This document shows positions 16,650-63,581 of a stretch of 64,000 bases of DNA, piece by piece. This stretch comes from Microthyrium microscopicum. Lineage: Eukaryota. How positions within the stretch are numbered: position 1 is the first letter of the stretch; each line of letters opens with the position of its first letter. A program made the translations under genes and the position numbers. The stretch covers positions 4,671 through 68,670 of the forward strand of contig MU004234.1 of assembly GCA_010405405.1 (NCBI GenBank). The letters run 5' to 3'. The notes beneath the pieces were generated by a model. That model saw nothing but the letters and a program-made list of their open reading frames with translations. It did no database searches and had not been told where the DNA came from.

Positions 16650-18662
16650 GCTTCATAGACTGACTGTTAAGGCGAGATACTTCAGGTCCTGTTCAAAGTG
16701 ATATCGCAATTCGATGCAGTGGTTGAGTAGTTGGAGTTATGTATGGGTTGGTCGCGGATATGAACCACTGTGCTGGTGGTTTGATGTCGTGCTTCATGAG
16801 GTTTTCGATGATGTAGTTACTGGCTTTTGACGTCATGGATAACTAATCCAACCCGGTAGAAAGCGCATGGAATTGTGGAATAATGGTGAATTTGCCGCAG
16901 TAGAGTTTGGCCGAGGCTGCATGCATTTGATTGACATTTGATGTATGCAAAGACATGGAGATGGCCAAGAGGTTCTGTACGTTAGAGGCACTACCAGTGA
17001 AGTGAAAGAAGTGCTTTCTTCTCATGCAATAATAGATCCATCCCGTCTAACCTTCTTTTGATGTTGTTTTCAGATGATCAGCCAGCCAATAATTGCACTG
17101 TTCATAAGGCATGGAATGGAACAAACGTTAGCACTTAATCTACGTTTACGCTAACTGAAACGAGAATTACTTCGCACATCAGTCATTTGATCTATGTCAA
17201 GGTTTGATGTCAAACCTTGATGGGAATTATTAGTCCTGTTCAAGTACTTGGGTTGGGTGCTTTAAAAAGTTGTATATGCTGCTTCCACATTCTCACAACT
17301 TTCTGAACTAAATGGTAGATTTGATTTTCTTCTTCTCCGATGTCTTTTACGCTTTGAGTGTTACCGTAGAGAGAAGTCCCACAAGATGTCCGCATGGTAG
17401 CTCCAGTAATCGATTCAGCCAAAATAGCGCTTTTGTGCAAAGAAGGCGTCAAAGACATATGATTAACAAGCGATCGAGTAAAGTATTTAATAGAATCAAC
17501 TTTAAGATAAGCGTAAATTTAGAATTACGAAACTTTAGCCTACTTTAACGGGGAATCGGCTTAAGCCTTATAAGCTTAATATGTTTATACTTACTAGAAA
17601 TTTGAATCATTCTTCTAGAGTAACAGCAAAGAAAAAACCAGAGAAACAGAATCGCCACATAAACGTTAATAAGCAGCCACGAAAACCCCAAATAGCTTGT
17701 GGACATCTTGTTAGATTTATACGGTCATGATTGTGTTGCTTCTTCATTGATACAAGCGAGAGCTACTCAAGTAACAGGAAGCATTATGATTGTCCAGACT
17801 TTTCTAGTCGTAAGTAAGTATCTTATCGTACCTTTTTATAGTAGGTTGAATATCTTCCCATTTACGGACCAACTCTACCGTAAATTGTCATACATATTTT
17901 AAGGATAGTCAGAACCTGCGAGCGTCAACGCCAATCAGGTACTTGGTTTAAAAGTGAGACCCTCTGCTGCTTGTTGCTTTTTGGGCAAGCGCTACAGGGA
18001 CTTTAACGTCCAGACCTCAGTAGTGGCTGATACTATTCGATATCATCAACACCCGACTACGGAGTACCGCACTCTTAGCTCTGAATTTTCTTATTGTTGG
18101 CGGCATGGGCAACAAACAAGCAAAGTAAGGCTGAGTGGGCTGTTCCTCATTACGAGTCTGGACTCTGGACCTTGCGCCCATTGTGTCGCGGCAGCTCTAG
18201 CTCGCGATTCAGCAATACGTTCGAGGCTTGACCATCAATTATTGGCTTCGAAAGCCACCACAAATCGTTTAGTTTTTAGTGTTTAGCAGGTATTCAACCA
18301 GTAAGAGTGCGAAGGAGAACTCAACCCGTATATAACAAGCTAAATCAAGCTTTTTCAGCCACAGAAGGTTTTCGCCAAAACCTGGAAGCTCATTTTGGTT
18401 GCGTTTAACCGAGATAAAAGTAGTAAAAGCGTACTGTGTAGGCTTGACGTTCGAACCTGTCTCTCAATCGCGGCATGTATACGGTAAGATATACCTGGGT
18501 ATGTACGCTGCCACAATCAGCTTCTGTAGTTGGTCGTCGGCACGCCGCTTTGACTTTTGTATTCCTCCTCGTTGACAACGTTGCTATAAGACAAGCTGCA
18601 CGCACCATATAGTTCATCATCGCGACCGGGTGTTTCTCAACTTCGATCAGAACGCTTCCAGA

Positions 18663-47240: not shown

Positions 47241-48221
47241 ATGAACAACGCCCCACAGCCTCCATCATCTCCTCCTCCAGCATCTCCTTCTCCAGAGAAA
47301 GATGGTCATGGCGCGGATACATCGGACGGTATTAGCTCTATAGCTCCAGAGCATCGTGAGTTCCCTCTCCCCAAGCTCATACTCGAATAGACGGACTAAC
47401 CCAATGCAGCAAATGCGCCAGCTCCCATTGCACCAGCACCAGGCTTGCCAGGTCATGGAGTTGCCCATCCATCCCTAGCGAATCTCAACCAAATCCTCAC
47501 TCTCACACAATTTCGTGGATTGATGGGGATCCCGTTTGACGATAGTACCCTTCCAACGTCTAACGATCCCTTAGCTCAACCCTTCAAACCAGTGCTACTC
47601 AGACCACCCAGAGTAACACCGAACTGGCTCTACAAAATCTTCTCATCTTCCGATCCCGAAGCTCCTACATCCATATACTACACCCTCCTTGAGCAAGAAC
47701 GTTATTCCTGGCGAAAGTATATCATTTACGACTGGTTAACGTACGGAGCTCTTGTCTCGCAACTCGTTCTTTCAGCAGCGTTAATCATTCTCGGCGCGCT
47801 TCCTAGTAGTCATCACATCAGCATCAGTATCATAGGTGCCGCAGGGGGTGTGCTGGCTGGCATCTTGTCTATCCTCAAGGGCCAGGGGCTGCCTACTAGG
47901 CTTCTCCGGTATGCCGATGGACTGCGCCAGGTACGCGAGGCCATTGAATTCGACGAGCGGGAACTACGTGTCGGGCTCAAATATGTCACGCTCGGAGATG
48001 CTATGGCACATCGCGAAGCGTACGAGAATGCACGTAGCGCGGAGATTACCAATATGCCCGATGTATGGCAGGCGGCGGAGGCTTTGAAGGGTGGGAAACC
48101 TGGGGCGGCTGGAACTACGACCAGTGGGCCGCCTCCTGGGACGTTTTCAAAGATTCCAGAACAACATCAGGCTACGCTTCATACTCCCGCCCCTGTTGTA
48201 CCGGGAGATCATAATGTTTGA
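47241..48221 (+). CDS. Fungal SLATT-domain (SMODS/SLOG-associating 2-TM) protein; intron 47356-47409
   Basis: Two TM helices QLVLSAALIILGA and ISIIGAAGGVLAGILSILKGQGLPTRL followed by LRQVREAIEFDEREL, matching the SLATT_fungal pattern. Confidence 0.8.
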
Positions 48222-51957: not shown

Positions 51958-52776
51958 CTAAAGCTCCATAAGTTTGTCTTCATCATCTATTTCATCCTCA
52001 AGATCAACATTTTCCTCCAAAACCATTTCCAAAGCATCCGGACCAGATTCGCCGTCGTCTCCAAATGTCCTCTCACCTTGCATTGAAGATAGGCTTGATT
52101 TGATTCCCTTCTTGTCCCTGTATCTATGTTTTCGAAGAACCTGGTACTGAATGGCAAATATGCGCTTGCCCTCAAGCCCAGCGCCGCCATCACGGCTATT
52201 CTCTTTACTCATTTCACCACCGCCTTCAAGAGTTGGAACATCCACGGGTATTCCTCCTGTCACTGCCATTGCAATTTCCTTCGTGGGTACTTTGGCATCA
52301 AGACTCGCGGCTGATCTTGATGATAGGCTCTCTGTGTACTTAAGAGAATCAGTGACCAGTAACCCAACGATTAGATATGCGGTCCTATCGGTCCAAGTTA
52401 AGCTGTTTACAGCCGCATGGAGTTGTGCATCAGCTTTGATGTTTTTCAGTACATCTGCATAATCTGAGATGGAAAGCTTTGCGACTTTGGCAGCGTTGAT
52501 CTCTGGCGAGTCTGAATGAGATTTTTCGGTAGAGAACTTGAGCACATCGGCCAGTGCAGCGTATATTGAGGTCCCTTGCTTGGACTTTAAGAGCTCTGAA
52601 ACATTCGAGTAACCTTCGTCCGTGAGCACGTCTCCGCGAATAGTAGATGTGTCCTTGGGTGCTTTGCCAGATAACGGATTTTGATGGTTACTGACTACCC
52701 TTCCTAGCCATTCCTCTGGCTTATCGGTTCGGAGAGTGGACCAAGAATCGAGCAGGTAGAAGCTGTCTTTGCTCAT
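51958..52776 (-). CDS. Fungal gasdermin-like pore-forming protein (HET-Q1/RCD-1 family), 272 aa
   Basis: Size and motif order: N-terminal FYLL, WLGRVV...P, AYLIVGLL, beta-hairpin-like Ser/Gly-rich segments, IFAIQYQVL, basic patch, F238-G239, then a highly acidic tail; adjacent to a protease gene. Recognised by pattern, not by HMM. Confidence 0.78.
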   Translation of the reverse strand: MSKDSFYLLDSWSTLRTDKPEEWLGRVVSNHQNPLSGKAPKDTSTIRGDVLTDEGYSNVSELLKSKQGTSIYAALADVLKFSTEKSHSDSPEINAAKVAKLSISDYADVLKNIKADAQLHAAVNSLTWTDRTAYLIVGLLVTDSLKYTESLSSRSAASLDAKVPTKEIAMAVTGGIPVDVPTLEGGGEMSKENSRDGGAGLEGKRIFAIQYQVLRKHRYRDKKGIKSSLSSMQGERTFGDDGESGPDALEMVLEENVDLEDEIDDEDKLMEL

Positions 52777-53364: not shown

Positions 53365-56300
53365 ATGGCAAGTCGGCAAAAGAAGATTCTGATATACGGT
53401 TTGCCTCACGGAGCTGACGGAAATCTTCCATATCTTCGCATATCCTATGAAGGCTTCAAAGCGGCTGCTCCTATTCCAATCAGTATTATGCCAAATGGTA
53501 AGCTTATCGTACATCGTACTACGTTCCTTGAAGAAATGTCATATACCAGGACTAGTGGTGGCTGTCAGAGCATTCGATGGACCCCATAGAATTCATGTGT
53601 TATTGTGTTCTATGGTTCCCACCACATGCGAAGGCTTCCATAACGTTTATATGGTTTCACCACGAGAGAAAAAAATTGATTTTTCGAAGCCTGTCGACCC
53701 TGATCAGAGTCTTATGCTAACAAATTCGAGGACCCGACAACAAGCTGCATGACCTTAAGTGGAATCTAGAGGAATTCGCAACAAAGGATCCATTTGACGT
53801 GTCAAGGTAAGGCTCTCTGATTTCAAAGCACCTTGCTTGATGACTTTCAAAACTACCAAACTAGTGGTGGCTTTCAGCACATTAGATGGCTCTCATGGCA
53901 TGTGTTTCTAAGCGCTATAGCTCCCAATGGATGCCATGGCCTTCATGGAAGGTTTGAACACGAAAATACCGAATACCCTCTTCGTATTGCTTGGGCTTTG
54001 ATCGATTGTTGATGTGATGCTAACAAAAGCAAGAGCAAACAAGATTGCAGATAATATCAAAAAATATACCAGTCATCTAATTCAGTTCGTCTTGAAAATC
54101 CTGGAAAGCCCCACCGATATATTGGGAAGTAGACTTGTTGTCAAGTTATCTGATCATTGGACGGGATCGTCGTTGTTAAGGCAAACCAGCGATGGGACAA
54201 ACATTGTTCCCCTTATGCAATGGGAATGTCTGGAGGAAGTGGAGTCATGGCCATCCGAGTACAGACCTCTCGCAGTCACAGTCGTACGAAGCACAGCTTG
54301 CTTAAATTTTGAAAGCGGAGAGACACAACAGCCTGTCTTGAGCGTCAAGTCTGTTCGAGTGCTGGCACTGAGTGCAAGGCCTTTTGGGGATAATGATGTT
54401 CCTCATCGTCTAGTCACTCGAACAATATATCAAGTCGTACAGTCGCTCGAGACGCAGCAGTACCCACCAGAGCTTATAATCGCAAGACCTGGCAGTATCG
54501 AAAGTTTGGATAGAGAACTGGGATCTCATCCTACCGGGTACTTTGACATTGTCCACCTCGATGTTCATGGAGAGGCAGACGAAGACAGGTAAGTCGGCTT
54601 GCAACTCTTATTTGCTAGTCCAAACATAACGATAGATAGCGCCACACTTCTATTCCTAGAGAATGCCGAGCCCACAAATGTGAAACGGGTAGAAGCTTAT
54701 CAGCTGGGGAAGGTGCTGCGGAACCACGGCGTTCGATGTGTTATAATGAATGCGTGTCAATCCGCCGCGTTGGTGCACAACTTCACTCGAAGCTTAGTCC
54801 AAGAAGGTATTCCCATGGTTCTCGGTATGCAATACAAGCTGCTAGAGACCGCTGCCGAGATATTGACTACAACACTTTACGAGGGCCTTCTTGCCCGTAA
54901 TCAGTCACTACCCGATGCTTGCGCTTATGCTCGATCCAAGCTCCGGGCCATTCCCAGCCGCAGAACTAACTACAACACCACGGTTCGGGTTCTCGACTAC
55001 ATGAATCCAGTGCTGTTTATGGCCGAGCGATTCGAAGAACCTGATCTGCGGGAGATCGGAAATGCGCCTCAAGTCGCTGCAAATGCTTTTGAAGTTGAGC
55101 AAGGCCTTCTTGGACGAGAATCCGTCATGCTTGATATGGAGAATGACTTCCTTACGTTCTCGAACCTGGGCTTTTTGACCGGCATAGCGGGCTCTGGTAA
55201 ATCCGCACTTGCTGCTCACCTATCCTGGTGGTGGAAAGCCACAGGTCTCATATGTGGCACTCTTCACATAGATTTCGCAAGCTTTGGTTCACTCGAATGG
55301 AAAGATATAGTTCAACTTTTCTGCGATGAAGTTCGGCAATTAAAAATCGACCATCAGGATGTGAACAGCGAAGAGAAACTACTTCAACATCTTCAACACT
55401 ATCGATATCTTGTGCTTTTTGATAGTATCGACGCTCTCGGATCAGTCGCGCCAATACAACTTCTTGACAGCATCATCAAATTCTCAAAGACTCTGAAAAA
55501 ACGTTATAAAAAATCCAAAGTTGGATCTTTGATCCTCTTCGTCAGTCGCGATGAACAAAACCGACTAAGAGCTGACACTGCTGCTCAGGTCTTCCCCTTG
55601 CAAGGATTGGTACGTTTTCTTGGGTAAGATCGCATCTCTTGACAACGCTTCGAGTACCAAAGCTAGTGGTGGCTACCATAGAAGGTGCTCATGACTGAGT
55701 GCTATGGTTCGCACCAAATGCAATGGCATTCAGAACGTGTTCAATGTTTCCTCCACGAAAAGACTAGGTGGCCGTTTTCAAATTATGCTAGATTAGTTGC
55801 TTCCTCGTACTAACAAATTCCAGGATCTTTCTTCCAGCTTACGCACCTCCTTCAGCCTCTTGGAGAAAAAGTCTAGATTTCTGAGTGCAACCGACACGAC
55901 CACTGCTCAGCATATGGCGGAGATAATGGCGCTCATCGGTGGCAACCCATTGGCTATCGAGCTAGTGATGGACGATTTTGCGCAACGTTCGGATGATCCT
56001 GCACAGTATTATCGGCGACTAACCTCCAATAAGAATTTTAAGATCGATACTTCCAGAATTCCCCATCGCAGCCTGCAACAAGCGCTGGAGTTGCGCGATT
56101 CTTCATGGGATTACAAACCTTTAATGGGAGTTTTGACCTCCAAACACATTATGTACCTTAGCCCATTTTGGAATGTCATTCCAGCCCGGCTCGCACCATA
56201 TTGGAGATTTGCTGAGCTCGCTATAAAAAGAACAAGTCGCCGTAACATATTTTCCAGGGATATGAAGGCGGCAGCCGAGTCGCTGGACGACTCAGAACTA

Positions 56301-57749
56301 CAACTGTTCATGGAACAAGACCGTTCCTGTGACGTGCTTGGAGCAGAGCAATACAAATACATGAATGAGGAATTCGCAAAGGCATTAGCTGGCTTTACTG
56401 ATTCTGGCTTTATCAGTGGACCGGAATCTACAAATTTCGGTACTGCTCTATGGGACGTTTACTACAACGTTCATCCCATCCTCACTATATGTTTGAGAGC
56501 CGCACTGAACGATAGTGATACTACTAGCGTGGACAAATTCATCGTCCCTGTTGCATTCCAAAGGTTCTATGAGCGACGCAATTTGTTGGAATTTCCCGAA
56601 AACCTAGCCCTTGGAGATTGGAGTGATGCCAGAGAGCAGATCAACTTCGAGTTTTCCAACTATGTAACGTCCGTGAATCTGTCATTGTCAATCAGAATGA
56701 CTTACGACAATTACAAATGTGACACGTTGAGTGTCATCCGGGGTCTAGAGTGCCGTGATGCCCGAGCACTCATGGTTGCCCACACACTCCAAAACCGCAG
56801 CATAGACTACCTTCTCGACGCGCTATGGGATATTAAACCAACTACATTTTCTGAGGCTCGAAACTCTTTCAACATGTTTGGACTCAAAACGCTGAGAAAG
56901 CTCAGCAAAGGTGTCAAGGCCCCGACCGATGACATCGACAGGTCCAACATTTCATTCTTCTGTATAATAGGAGTGTTCTGTGTAGGAAAAATGATGGATG
57001 CAGCCATGTCCGCATACAAGCTTGGTTTCAATATGGGTATATACCGAAAGCACTTGGAAAGATTGAAAACATATGGTGCAGCCGAATCATCTGCGGCCAA
57101 GGAGTTGAATGCCATGCTGAAATCATTTGAAGGACATCTGGATTATATCGATAGGGGTCTTTCCAACAGATCTATCGAAGAAGATAACCTGGCCTCTAAG
57201 GTAGCTCAGACGGGTCAAGCGGAAGCTTTTCTGGCTTTGCAGAAGGGTCTGGGAAGAGTTGGTGATCTAAACTCGCTTTCTGAACGTGTGCAACAGGCCA
57301 AACTAGTATCAAATTTCAACACGCTATCTCGGAACATACATGGCGGCGACGAATATCAGGCTCAAGCAGAGGCCGTGGTTGGGCTTTTCTTTAGAAGCCG
57401 AAATGGAGAAGACATTTCCATCGATGAAATCGAGGGCCTTGAGAAGATTTCACACGACTACCTGCGTCAGAACTTACTCGGAGGAAGCAGTAATCCCGAG
57501 CGGATGGTCTCACTACATCATCATTTGATTACTCTCGCCATAGTGCGGGACGATATACTGCGGGCCAAGGAGCATTTAAAAGCGTCACGCCCTTATCTCT
57601 TGCAGTTGCCCGAAAAGGAAGAGCCACGGCTGTCGATTGAGACAGTACGCAAGGATTTTGAAAACTGGATCGAGGCAAGAAAACGTCTGGAGCAATTGTT
57701 GCAGGAGAGGGAAGCAGAGGCAGTATTGAATAAAGGTAGCAACTCATAG
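53365..57749 (+). CDS. CHAT (caspase-like) protease fused to a STAND/NB-ARC-like NTPase and a helical C-terminus; exons 53365-53497, 53731-53806, 54034-54588, 54640-55609, 55824-57749 (1219 aa)
   Basis: Exons sum to 3660 nt in one frame. CHAT His motif FDIVHLDVHG and Cys motif VIMNACQS; GIPMVLGMQY; Walker A GIAGSGKS; Walker B YLVLFDSID; GGNPLAIEL (GxPLA) motif. Confidence 0.88.
53498..55823 (+). repeat. Three mutually homologous long introns (53498-53730, 53807-54033, 55610-55823)
   Basis: Each has CTTGA at +28/29, TACCA, identical CTAGTGGTGGCT at +53/54 from the donor, CTAT(G/A)G(T/C)TC, ATGC.A.GGC, CACGA and a CTAACAAA branch region. Confidence 0.88.
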
Positions 57750-60005: not shown

Positions 60006-63000
60006 TCATTGCTGCAAGGAGCGCTTCTCCGATGCGGCGGGCTCGACCACAGTGCGAACTGATGTGTCGCTGTTGGACGAAATGGGGCCACAAGGAGGAA
60101 ATGTCTGAGCATGTGTAGGCCATGGATGGGTGGAGGATGCAGTAGCAGGTGGGGAGGTGGAATAGGCTGGTGCGGAATCAGTTTCCTTGCGCTTTGTCGA
60201 AGGCGTTCGATTGCGAGTGCCAAAGACTCGGCTCATGATGCCCCGACCTTTCTGTGGAGGACTTGTGCTATGCTGCAACGACTCTTCAGGAGAGACTGGT
60301 ATGATGTCTTCCTTGTGTATTTTGCAGAATACAGAGGAGAAGTAGAATCGTTCCCCAGCAACGTTGGTGAGAGGAATCGCCCGATATCCTTGCCGAAGGC
60401 TTTCGAGCTTGGCCGTGTAGCTGGCCATCGGGATCTTGGAATTGGAATAGTTTCTGCCATTATCGCTATGATGAACCGTCCATCGAATGAAGACCAAAGA
60501 TGGATATCGCGTATGAACCGTGACATTGAATTTTTGGTGATATGAAGGGTCGTATACGTTTCGCTCCGCGATACTGGTGCGTAAGCGTAGAGGCGCGCCA
60601 ATGTTGCGGCTATCGGAAGGATCTTGGCTACCTTCCCCAATAGCATGGCTCTGTCCTTTGTCTTCTGCTACAAAAACTTCAACCTCAACGTATGGGTTGG
60701 TTGCAATATCTGAATTTTGCCCACGAGCACGAGGAAGTTGATGTCCTGATATGACATCAATAGAAAACTTGACACGCTTCTTCTCAGGCTTCTGCGACTC
60801 TGGGTCAATAGAGGCATCTGAGGGACGAAGATCGGCTGGTTTGAGCACGTAGCCGAGTGAATCGTCGCCACCGGCAAACATGGCTGTATTGAGCTGCATA
60901 CCAAGATCATTTGTTTGCCAATTCAGGGCGGCAAATTGAACGCCACGACGCCAGAACTTGAGGGGCTCGAAGTTATCGGATCTGATTCGGGTGGCAGAAG
61001 GATACACGCGCATCAAATATCGACGATTGTGCTTCTCCAACTGAGCTTTTGCGCCTTTATTCTCTTTGTTGCAGATAGATTCAAAAGTCTTTTCGGCAAA
61101 AGAGTAGATGTGATTAAACGTTCGACCCTCATTGGATTTGAAATCACTGTATTTGATTCCCTTGGTGTAAATTCCCAGATCCCCGAGAGCTCGCACAATT
61201 TTGCTGGTCATTTTCTTCTTCGACGACCCGGCATGAACATCACTGTCTTCAGAAGAACTTGTTTGACAGATTGGAGAGCCGACTGAGGCTATCGAGTTCA
61301 AATGGCTCGTGGTTGGCATAGATGACGATATCAACGTCTGTTCGGTGTCCGGCTGAGAAAGGGTCGAGGATTTAGACAACGGAATGGTGAGAGGAGACGC
61401 ACCGATTGAGTCAAGAGACCCAATGTCCGCCCTGACAGGCTTGACGAATGGCGAACTAAGCCCTCGTGGTCGTCGCGGTAAAGACTCCATAGAGTTTCCG
61501 AACTCGGTCAGTTCTTGCGAAGAAGCCTTGACTTTGATCAAGATCCTGTTCCTGAGTTCTTCAGGAGTGGGCAGAGTTAAACTATCATCTATAGGCGCAG
61601 TCAAGAGTCTGGCTCCAAATATTGAATGCATCCTGTTAACCATGACGACTTGTTGTGCAGGGTTGCAGTGAACCTCGAGTGAAATGATCAATGGATAGTC
61701 GCTGGATCTGAAGGCATTTTCGTTGATAACTTTGATGCAATCGGTAAACCCAATAGATGATGTGAACGCCCTACCGTGCATAACAATGGGTTCTCCGTCT
61801 TCACCATTCCAGCAGTCAATCTCAATGCAACGACAGTTTCTGCTAAGCGCATTAACGTAAGCCTGTGTGGTAGACTCGTCCAAGACCTGTTTGCCTGGCA
61901 GATAGGTGTTGTGCGAACTGGATACGAAATACTCGTTCAAGGGTCGATTCAATGGCTGGCCAGAGGTATAGTGAGAAATATCCCCAGAAACCTCCGGAAT
62001 CAACAAAAAGGCCTGGAAAGCTGGAAAATGCATCGTGGTGTATGTAGCAGGCTCTGCGCCAACCGGACGCTCTCGAGACTTTTGACAGTACTTTTCAAAC
62101 ATACCGGTCCACCAGTCGAGGTGCTTATCAACATCGATTCCTTGGGTATCTCGGAGAAACCTAAAGCATGTGTCTTGATCTAGTTCCTTCTTCCCTGATG
62201 AAGAATCTTCCCGGGAGAGTATGGATTGAAATATCTGTTTGATGTCATGTCGCTTCCTAAGGCGCTTGATAAACATGCGAAACTGTTGGAAGTTCAAGCC
62301 GGAAGTATGGTCCTGATCAGCTCGCAGGAATTGCTCTCTGAGTTTTGCATCTGAGCAATTAATGCCGAGCTTTTTGCGGCAAAGGATTTTGATGTTATCA
62401 AAATCAAGTTCCACGGATCCATCGAATTCAGCTCCTGGGACCTTGGCGTGTACTTCGGATTTCCAGATGTCTTTCAGGCTCTTTGCTCCACCTTTTCGAA
62501 TATTTGTCATGGTCTCAATGCGCGTCCGTTGAATTTGATTGATTGTTTCGATCCAATGTCTGCAGGTTGACTCGTCTTCTGCTATCAGATGCATAGTCTT
62601 TTGAGCTCCAATCGTTCTGGACACATCTCTGTACACAATGGTGAACCATCGTTTTCCAATTTCGGGGTCAAGATATCCAAGGGCATTTCGGTATTCTTTT
62701 GCTTCAAGCCCATCTTGAATGCTTTGGACGTCATCAATGTAGACCTGTTTGGAGAGGCCAGTATCCCAAGAAAATTTGGCGGCCTCAAAATCAAGGCGCA
62801 GACGAATTTCCTTGGGTTTTTTGCCCTTCTTTGCCACCTTTGTAACTGTTGTTCCAGCTCTCAGAATCGCAGGTACAAGAGGACCAATACCATCAGAAGC
62901 TGTCGATGATGCCATGCTAGGGCGAGACTGCGCAGCTGAAGGAATTTTGGTAGAAGATCTATCTTCAAGATCATTGACAGCCTCGTCATCTTCGCTGTCA

Positions 63001-63581
63001 AGGTCCAGGTCAGAGATTTCGGGATTATTGTCAATGGTGGCACGGCTGCCGTCGAATGGGACGCGAACGCTTCCGCTTAAACGCCGCATGACCATCGGGC
63101 CTGCGCTCAGGTCTCTGCTGGTGTTAACATTGGATCCACGCCGGTGGCCAAGTCGACTATGAGCACCCTTAGACAGTCGACGAACGATATCTCCGGGACT
63201 ACGGGACATTATCATCGCTTCTGCCATGGCAGAAGCCAAAGCTGGTGGAGAAGCCATGGAGGTGATACTGGCATTGTCAGGTTGCGTTCCTGCCATTGAA
63301 GTAGGTACGGTGGTAGTAGTAAGCGGAGACATGAAACCTTCTGGACTGGTAGAAATAGAAGTATTGGTAGGTGGTATTGATGTCGTAGATATTAGACTAC
63401 CTCTGGATGAGTTGTTGGATATGGCGGATGCAAGGTTGCTGGCAGGAGGAATATTGGTGGAGACATTTTGTCTGAACCTGGACTTTGAAATTGAAAATGT
63501 TTGGGAGGATTTCTTTGAAGGAGGGTGAGTATCTCCTTTGAACTCGGGGGACGGAGGAGTAGAGGAGGATTTTGACTCCAT
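60006..63581 (-). CDS. PLC1: Phosphoinositide-specific phospholipase C (PH, EF-hand, X, Y, C2)
   Basis: PLNEYFVSSSHNTYL, CRCIEIDCW, YPLIISLEVHC (X box); LMRVYPSATRIRSDNF, ALNWQT (Y box); C2 domain with GYRAIPL. The first in-frame ATG is at 63581; an upstream exon cannot be excluded. Confidence 0.95.
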   Translation of the reverse strand: MESKSSSTPPSPEFKGDTHPPSKKSSQTFSISKSRFRQNVSTNIPPASNLASAISNNSSRGSLISTTSIPPTNTSISTSPEGFMSPLTTTTVPTSMAGTQPDNASITSMASPPALASAMAEAMIMSRSPGDIVRRLSKGAHSRLGHRRGSNVNTSRDLSAGPMVMRRLSGSVRVPFDGSRATIDNNPEISDLDLDSEDDEAVNDLEDRSSTKIPSAAQSRPSMASSTASDGIGPLVPAILRAGTTVTKVAKKGKKPKEIRLRLDFEAAKFSWDTGLSKQVYIDDVQSIQDGLEAKEYRNALGYLDPEIGKRWFTIVYRDVSRTIGAQKTMHLIAEDESTCRHWIETINQIQRTRIETMTNIRKGGAKSLKDIWKSEVHAKVPGAEFDGSVELDFDNIKILCRKKLGINCSDAKLREQFLRADQDHTSGLNFQQFRMFIKRLRKRHDIKQIFQSILSREDSSSGKKELDQDTCFRFLRDTQGIDVDKHLDWWTGMFEKYCQKSRERPVGAEPATYTTMHFPAFQAFLLIPEVSGDISHYTSGQPLNRPLNEYFVSSSHNTYLPGKQVLDESTTQAYVNALSRNCRCIEIDCWNGEDGEPIVMHGRAFTSSIGFTDCIKVINENAFRSSDYPLIISLEVHCNPAQQVVMVNRMHSIFGARLLTAPIDDSLTLPTPEELRNRILIKVKASSQELTEFGNSMESLPRRPRGLSSPFVKPVRADIGSLDSIGASPLTIPLSKSSTLSQPDTEQTLISSSMPTTSHLNSIASVGSPICQTSSSEDSDVHAGSSKKKMTSKIVRALGDLGIYTKGIKYSDFKSNEGRTFNHIYSFAEKTFESICNKENKGAKAQLEKHNRRYLMRVYPSATRIRSDNFEPLKFWRRGVQFAALNWQTNDLGMQLNTAMFAGGDDSLGYVLKPADLRPSDASIDPESQKPEKKRVKFSIDVISGHQLPRARGQNSDIATNPYVEVEVFVAEDKGQSHAIGEGSQDPSDSRNIGAPLRLRTSIAERNVYDPSYHQKFNVTVHTRYPSLVFIRWTVHHSDNGRNYSNSKIPMASYTAKLESLRQGYRAIPLTNVAGERFYFSSVFCKIHKEDIIPVSPEESLQHSTSPPQKGRGIMSRVFGTRNRTPSTKRKETDSAPAYSTSPPATASSTHPWPTHAQTFPPCGPISSNSDTSVRTVVEPAASEKRSLQQ

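Follow-up and report, generated by a model that had tools for sequence, protein, structure and literature searches.

In a 64,000-nucleotide stretch of the genome of the ascomycete Microthyrium microscopicum (assembly GCA_010405405.1, contig MU004234.1, positions 4,671 to 68,670 of the forward strand; hereafter, the window, with coordinates counted from its first nucleotide), a CHAT-NACHT gene similar to het-Q2 contains four introns, three of which (introns 1, 2 and 4) are long and homologous to each other. We consider it probable, at roughly 0.68, that these three belong to a dispersed and by now degenerate family of mobile spliceosomal introns, of the type known as introner-like elements (ILEs), which entered the gene three times. 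All three are spliced out at the predicted borders and leave seamless junctions, are missing from homologous genes, align with each other in the register of whole introns, and have relatives elsewhere in the genome.

Each unit has its own donor site (GTAAG or GTACG), a branch point, CTAAC, located 14 nt from its end, and an AG acceptor, with these splice signals flanking a conserved core of about 120 nt. Under this scenario, upon insertion into an exon in the sense orientation, such a unit would be removed by the U2 spliceosome, restoring the reading frame exactly. The CHAT-NACHT gene would have taken three insertions of this kind, in phases 1, 2 and 0 and at sites with no relation to each other, and its relatives none. 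The mobile entity would be the unit itself, and the core would be kept because it serves propagation. Spread would probably not proceed via cut-and-paste DNA transposition, because the introns lack terminal inverted repeats and consistent target-site duplications.

Three homologous introns in one gene

The CHAT-NACHT (het-Q2-like) gene (53365..57749, on the + strand, as are all its parts given below) starts with the ATG at 53365 and consists of five exons (53365-53497, 53731-53806, 54034-54590, 54642-55609 and 55824-57749, the last including the stop codon). The predicted GT..AG borders of introns 1-4 yield a single open spliced frame of 1219 aa, and the product is collinear with its homologues. 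Exon 4 encodes a CHAT protease domain (Pfam, E 1.9e-11) and a P-loop NTPase that scores 26.6 bits as NACHT, just below the Pfam cut-off of 26.7. Intron 1 (53498..53730, 233 nt, phase 1), intron 2 (53807..54033, 227 nt, phase 2) and intron 4 (55610..55823, 214 nt, phase 0) are copies of the family, with nhmmer E values of 8.9e-65, 1.2e-60 and 3.2e-55, respectively. Intron 3 (54591..54641, phase 1) is an ordinary short intron that is common to the homologues and does not belong to the family; its 51 nt compare with the 214-233 nt of the long introns. The AMP-binding gene of the window has candidate introns of 56 and 66-75 nt, predicted from signals alone.

Introns 1, 2 and 4 can be aligned end to end, with 92 of the 239 columns invariant and pairwise identities of 58-62% overall and 67-71% in the central core of ~120 nt. 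This core (53542..53672 in intron 1, 53851..53970 in intron 2 and 55653..55765 in intron 4) includes the 12-mer CTAGTGGTGGCT (53552-53563, 53861-53872 and 55663-55674, respectively), for which a search tolerating one mismatch gave no other site in the window. The three matches in the window compare with 0.20 expected, a number of three being reached in none of 100 shuffles, and the run of 12 invariant alignment columns was reached in 10 of 10,000 column shuffles. Conservation is uneven along the introns, with 57 invariant columns among 130 in the core versus 6 among 43 in the 3' arm (Fisher p 4e-4).

The shared features keep their places relative to the splice sites. CTTGA is found at intron position 30, 30 and 29 in introns 1, 2 and 4, the 12-mer starts at position 55, 55 and 54, and CACGA precedes the 3' end by 70, 75 and 70 nt. 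The branch-point motif CTAAC is located at -14 in all three long introns, and the last 14 nt of each conform to CTAACAAA..C.AG. The distance from the core is, in every case, 54-55 nt to the donor and 70-75 nt to the acceptor. When compared without gaps in a fixed register from the donor, the 5' arms show 45-50% identity where 27% is expected (P 0.0017-0.0069). Aligning the arms with gaps was uninformative when set against shuffles (z ~0).

A covariance model built from the family recovers exactly the three introns in the window, with 137.8, 124.7 and 113.7 bits for the cores of introns 1, 2 and 4. No further copy in the 64 kb was detected either by this model run with filters off (next best E 3.5) or by the nhmmer profile (next best E 0.17). 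A non-significant profile match (E 0.17-0.44) covers 18190-18317 on the - strand, an apparently non-coding segment that contains TTTGTGGTGGCTTTC and would be either a chance match or a highly degenerate family remnant.

Within the core of intron 1, the segment 53610-53669 carries a direct repeat of ~15 nt, TATGGTTCCCACCAC / TATGGTTTCACCAC, with the two units 40 nt apart. The repeat is weaker in introns 4 and 2, and each of its units is able to pair with GTGGTGG. From the repeat in intron 1, the ancestral core may have contained an internal duplication.

An initial annotation of the window, made from the letters alone, had assigned to introns 1, 2 and 4 the lengths and phases given above and collinear motifs at fixed distances from the donor, including a 12-mer seen nowhere else in the window. 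All of this stands: the lengths, including the 51 nt of intron 3, are borne out by the single 1219-aa frame together with the transcript joints described below, the phases by the spliced frame, the motifs by the register of the alignment, and the uniqueness of the 12-mer by the search that tolerated one mismatch.

Splicing at the predicted borders

Sequence data came as contigs of public runs, namely, X5 and three DNA runs from one probable source sample. No run is recorded as RNA, and the labelling of X5 as RNA is a guess; we treat it as transcript-derived because its contigs show GT..AG joints. In the X5 contigs, the exon joints skip exactly 233, 227, 51 and 214 nt, each from GT to AG, and the borders agree with those demanded by the comparison with homologous genes below. 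Thus, the splicing predicted in the initial annotation is seen at the exact nucleotides. For introns 1 and 3, the shorter side of the joint spans 77 and 255 letters, respectively, and for introns 2 and 4 only 26 and 28. The three DNA runs contain no splice joints, and the stretch is present there unspliced within one contig.

Intron 4 is joined in more than one way. The canonical joint has a depth of 105.5 in X5. An alternative joint, 55622->55823 (depth 39.9, shorter side 28 letters), skips 200 nt and uses a donor at 55624..55625 (+), 14 nt downstream of the canonical one, with a frameshift and a stop after residue 602. A cryptic joint, 55765->55822 (depth 42.3, shorter side 31 letters), uses a donor at 55768..55769 (+), so that the last 56 nt of the intron are removed and the first 158 nt are kept, with a stop after residue 583; this record is unspliced through 55610. 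Unspliced X5 contigs cover intron 1 in part (depth 6.3) and intron 2 in full (depth 7.9). In translation, premature stops truncate all retained and alternative forms, after 70-74, 583 or 602 residues. The two additional forms of intron 4 would keep the CHAT and NTPase core and drop the C-terminal part of ~640 residues. Contig depth in this single data set is a poor measure, and these forms hint at untidy splicing of intron 4 and are not evidence of regulation.

The X5 contig with spliced exons 1 and 2 is 4179 nt long and reaches ~3.9 kb upstream of 53300, past the neighbouring gasdermin-like gene described below. The contigs are strandless, and this one may have merged overlapping transcripts of neighbouring genes.

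Intron positions in homologous genes

The homologues available for comparison are plain reading-frame calls. A search with exon 3 yielded seven N-terminal frames (P0032-P0038) of 236-267 residues, all of which begin at the same Met as the CHAT-NACHT gene and cross the sites of introns 1 and 2 gap-free. Six of the seven end at the site of intron 3, and the seventh ends 12 residues further. When the window itself is read through the intron 3 donor, AGG is followed immediately by the stop codon TAA, so that an end of the frame at this point is what plain reading-frame calling on unspliced DNA is expected to produce.

The search with exon 4 yielded longer C-terminal homologues, four of which begin within ~13 residues after intron 3. 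At the site of intron 4 (55609|55824), the flanking residues are adjacent in six of the 10 C-terminal homologues compared; three others cross the site with trimmed alignments, and one ends there. Three pairs of N- and C-terminal frames come from equally sized contigs (38449, 3446 and 4488 nt), suggesting one gene per pair, split only at intron 3. Identity of the homologues to the CHAT-NACHT gene product is 42-63%.

Because their frames run across the other three sites, the relatives have a single intron, at the position of intron 3. As judged from these reading frames, introns 1, 2 and 4 are accordingly lineage-specific gains, and intron 3 is the old intron. The comparison of intron positions in orthologues that the initial annotation had proposed thus finds the three long introns absent. 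Their junctions are seamless, with zero residues gained or lost. Since the sites are free of older introns in the relatives and the core keeps a constant distance to both splice sites, the repeated unit runs from GT to AG.

Further copies in the genome

The intron family is dispersed in the genome, with at least six more loci. The search for these copies covered the three DNA runs of the one sample at a likeness of at least 80%, with flanks of 30 nt visible. In each run, six further contigs of single-copy depth match the cores at 81-89% over 35-57 nt; the depth of these loci is 102-119, against 104.9 in X1. One locus matches the core of intron 1 (53612-53648, with four differences in 37), and the remaining five match the core of intron 4 within 55666-55731 (81-87% over 35-57 nt). 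The loose ends of these loci carry on with family motifs, for example, GGTTTCACCACGA. None of the six matches the 2 kb of exons.

The best local matches among the three introns within the gene reach 75-79%, those between introns 1 and 4 extending over 27-55 nt. Matches to the other loci are at least as good, which, although the segments are short, weakly suggests that the insertions were separate and came from already diverged sources, rather than arising by copying within the gene.

Beyond this genome, a scan of metagenomes with the first family pattern gave no matches. A looser pattern gave a single match (L001), which we rejected as a chance hit: it is an ordinary protein-coding stretch by eye, presumably a bacterial argininosuccinate synthase gene, and has no profile match. 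Of four family motifs sought in full-text literature, the 12-mer was the only one to be found, in eight papers with titles on unrelated animal and plant topics.

RNA structure, terminal repeats and known RNA classes

The minimum free energies of introns 1, 2 and 4 are -52.5, -58.4 and -54.8 kcal/mol. A central hairpin is common to introns 1 and 4 (an imperfect hairpin at ~55670-55713 in the latter) and is mostly lost in intron 2. The antisense core of intron 1 reaches a z of -3.56; since the other two reach only -0.35 and -1.12, we give it no weight.

In the segment 52500-58500, Rfam gave no match at E up to 10, to transfer RNA (tRNA) or otherwise, and ARAGORN found no tRNA gene in the window. 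Two candidate classes were considered and rejected. An intron-borne small nucleolar RNA was dropped because the box-C-like TGATGA is present only in intron 2 and the box-D motif CTGA only in intron 1. For a tRNA-derived short interspersed nuclear element (SINE), the resemblance by eye of two conserved islands to the A- and B-box consensus received no support from ARAGORN or Rfam.

Alignment of each intron with its own reverse complement scores 22, 20 and 18, with shuffles averaging 19-20 and reaching a maximum of 33-34, so that no terminal inverted repeats are apparent in any of the three. Nor is there a consistent target-site duplication: the end of the exon and the end of the intron share 1, 4 and 1 nt.

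The gasdermin-like neighbour and the locus

Upstream of the CHAT-NACHT gene and divergent from it lies a gasdermin-like gene of the HET-Q1/RCD-1 family (51961..52776, - strand; 272 aa in one open frame), such that the two genes are arranged head to head, 588 bp apart. A profile built from the family of this frame finds two fungal gasdermins, RCD-1-1 (8jyz_A, E 1.2e-5) and HET-Q1 in its pore form (9uv9_A, E 0.0023); Pfam gives no match to the protein. For its AlphaFold2 model (predicted local distance difference test score 80.1), all nine of the nine best Foldseek matches are gasdermin chains, of animal, fungal (RCD-1) and bacterial origin (E 7.6e-10 to 1.7e-5), and the protein has an atlas feature score of 0.95 to a bacterial gasdermin cluster.

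The two genes form a pair of the het-Q1/het-Q2 type. In the available text of Clave et al. 2022 (PMC8851545), which draws no link to intron content, a CHAT-type gene is located near 353 of 1884 fungal gasdermins. The host gene resembles the het-Q1/het-Q2 pairs described there in being a CHAT-domain NLR-like gene beside a gasdermin gene, within 10 kb, a likeness that concerns the locus only. For the intron family, we regard the gasdermin-partnered host as a curiosity, which would matter only if such genes were preferred genome-wide or if expression were affected.

Upstream of the gasdermin gene, at a distance of ~4 kb, an open frame at 47400-48218 (+) contains a SLATT_fungal domain (PF18142, E 5.5e-26), which belongs to a family associated with conflict systems. 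On the other side of the pair, a phospholipase C gene (60009-63209, - strand, 1067 aa) is intron-free, and its best named relatives, at 52-56% identity, are from Dothideomycetes. The named relatives of the CHAT gene include Oculimacula and Trizodia, which we take to be Leotiomycetes. The host lineage is thus poorly sampled, and the protein collection contains no closely related sequenced organism.

Origin of the three introns

Several observations weigh against an origin of the three introns from a mobile family. Only six other loci were detected at a likeness of at least 80%, whereas published ILE families comprise tens to hundreds of near-identical members, and the copies in the gene are merely 58-62% identical. 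The other loci, visible with 30-nt flanks, are no more than candidates for whole introns in the sense orientation. In these flanks, the exact 12-mer shared by the three introns is altered, which hints that the copies in the gene share something extra. The interior of the 3' arm keeps its length, with no similarity to be detected among the copies (24-33% identity, P 0.21-0.81). No excess fold stability over shuffles was found for the whole introns (z -0.48, -0.92 and -1.11) or for the cores (z -0.8 to -1.35), so that the word 'structured', which the initial annotation used of introner-like elements, is not borne out for these introns if taken as unusual stability. Finally, the three copies lie within 2.3 kb, with none in the other ~60 kb, an unlikely outcome of random insertion unless the family is large; because of this clustering, local or same-gene copying may have contributed to the group of three.

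In its full form, copying within the gene would mean that a founder intron was duplicated twice. One conceivable route is that the excised intron was reverse-spliced into the transcript it came from, with reverse transcription and recombination as the next steps; the other genomic copies would represent a separate, minor spread. The confinement of all three copies in the window to 2.3 kb of one gene is in line with such a history, as is their exact 12-mer, which the other loci show only in altered form in their visible flanks. Same-gene duplication is a recorded fungal class, making up 82 of the 1610 multi-copy introns counted across 24 species according to the available part of PMC3609843. 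Copies are not confined to the gene, however, being found at six other loci, and introns 1 and 4 match those loci (81-89%) at least as well as they match each other (75-79%), a weak argument in view of the short segments. We consider this origin unlikely, though it is the strongest competitor of repeated entry from a mobile family. A landing of a miniature inverted-repeat transposable element (MITE) or SINE in three older introns, as with the intron repeats of Sclerotinia, Fusarium graminearum and Rhytidhysteron, would account for the dispersal of the family, for the imperfect hairpin in the core and for the two islands that look, by eye, like the A and B boxes of polymerase III promoters. It is largely refuted by the homologues, which are intron-free at all three sites and thus offer no older introns to land in; the constant distances from the core to donor (54-55 nt) and acceptor (70-75 nt) would not be expected of unrelated host introns, and the empty ARAGORN and Rfam results and the lack of terminal inverted repeats further reduce it to a very slim chance.

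The other explanation that has to be taken into account is selection by the host, under which the core would be an intronic RNA element that controls splicing and thereby sets how much is made of a gasdermin-activating, potentially lethal protease; one way would be to steer transcripts into prematurely terminated forms. The uneven conservation, with its 12-column invariant run and its contrast between core and 3' arm, is compatible with this, as is the maintenance of lengths of 214-233 nt despite ~40% divergence. All retained and alternative forms do end in premature stops, and the non-productive forms of intron 4, at depths of 39.9 and 42.3 against 105.5 for the productive one, provide a hint, and no more than that. 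Yet the core recurs at six or more other loci, where the element's own needs suffice; Rfam is empty, fold stability is not in excess, the central hairpin is largely gone from intron 2, the homologues work without introns 1, 2 and 4, and the unspliced contigs across introns 1 and 2 are low in depth (6.3 and 7.9). We therefore find host selection on the core improbable. Its most specific version, in which the long introns are a splicing gate for the gasdermin-activating protease and the family was domesticated as a safety device, is slightly less probable again; if true, slow or misdirected splicing, above all of intron 4, would shift many of the transcripts to premature-stop forms and hold the lethal enzyme below threshold.

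The initial annotation had offered both an introner family that hit one gene three times and an intronic element that gates expression. The former fits most of the tests, and nothing shows gating. The islands of identity had been taken to favour functional constraint, and the Rfam scan suggested at that time returned nothing. Because the other genomic copies keep the same core, its conservation can be explained by selection on the element's own spread, and no host function is needed.

Comparison with known intron systems

Fungal ILEs of Dothideomycetes are reportedly the subject of a 2012 study by van der Burgt et al. As described in the available portions of PMC3609843 and PMC4457414, fungal ILEs are longer than regular introns (which are 50-55 bp; PMC4457414), have canonical splice signals, are tied to intron gains and degenerate with age. 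The present family resembles them by anatomy, as compared by description: the unit is a whole spliceosomal intron with canonical signals, located seamlessly at positions that are intron-free in relatives, several times longer than regular introns, degenerate, and present in several gained copies per gene. The same papers record two gained ILEs in one gene and four ILEs across three species in one orthologue group, compared with three copies in one gene here. The present copies also differ from those ILEs in being only 58-62% identical, with nine family loci so far, and in lacking excess predicted stability relative to shuffles, the published stability criterion being free energy relative to regular introns.

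The fungal same-gene duplications of PMC3609843 are similar in that homologous introns sit at several places in one gene, between exons that are unrelated to each other; unlike those near-identical introns, as the available text presents them, the present ones are diverged and belong to a family found also at six or more other loci. The symmetrical sister (stw)introns of Hypoxylaceae, of ~100-200 nt, with tens of copies and terminal inverted repeats of 45-55 nt in the accessible part of PMC8469720, are likewise low-copy proliferating introns with seamless insertion, no flanking duplications and no Rfam match, but the introns described here align with their own reverse complements no better than shuffles do. 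Transposon-derived introners, too, are repeat families that create introns. In the portion of Gozashti et al. 2025 (PMC12130899) available to us, ~82% of the confidently classified families are DNA transposons with terminal inverted repeats, and fungi are among the enriched groups; in contrast to those introners, the present family has neither terminal inverted repeats nor a consistent target-site duplication.

Thus, the CHAT-NACHT gene presents a clean, transcript-verified case of three homologous intron gains in one gene, in which the intron-less relatives provide the 'before' state and intron 3, old and shared, is an internal control. The case contributes an introner-like family with a defined, non-symmetrical core and no transposon hallmarks, found in an ascomycete lineage of which little has been sampled, and this family should be useful in addressing how fungal ILEs move, a question still unsolved.

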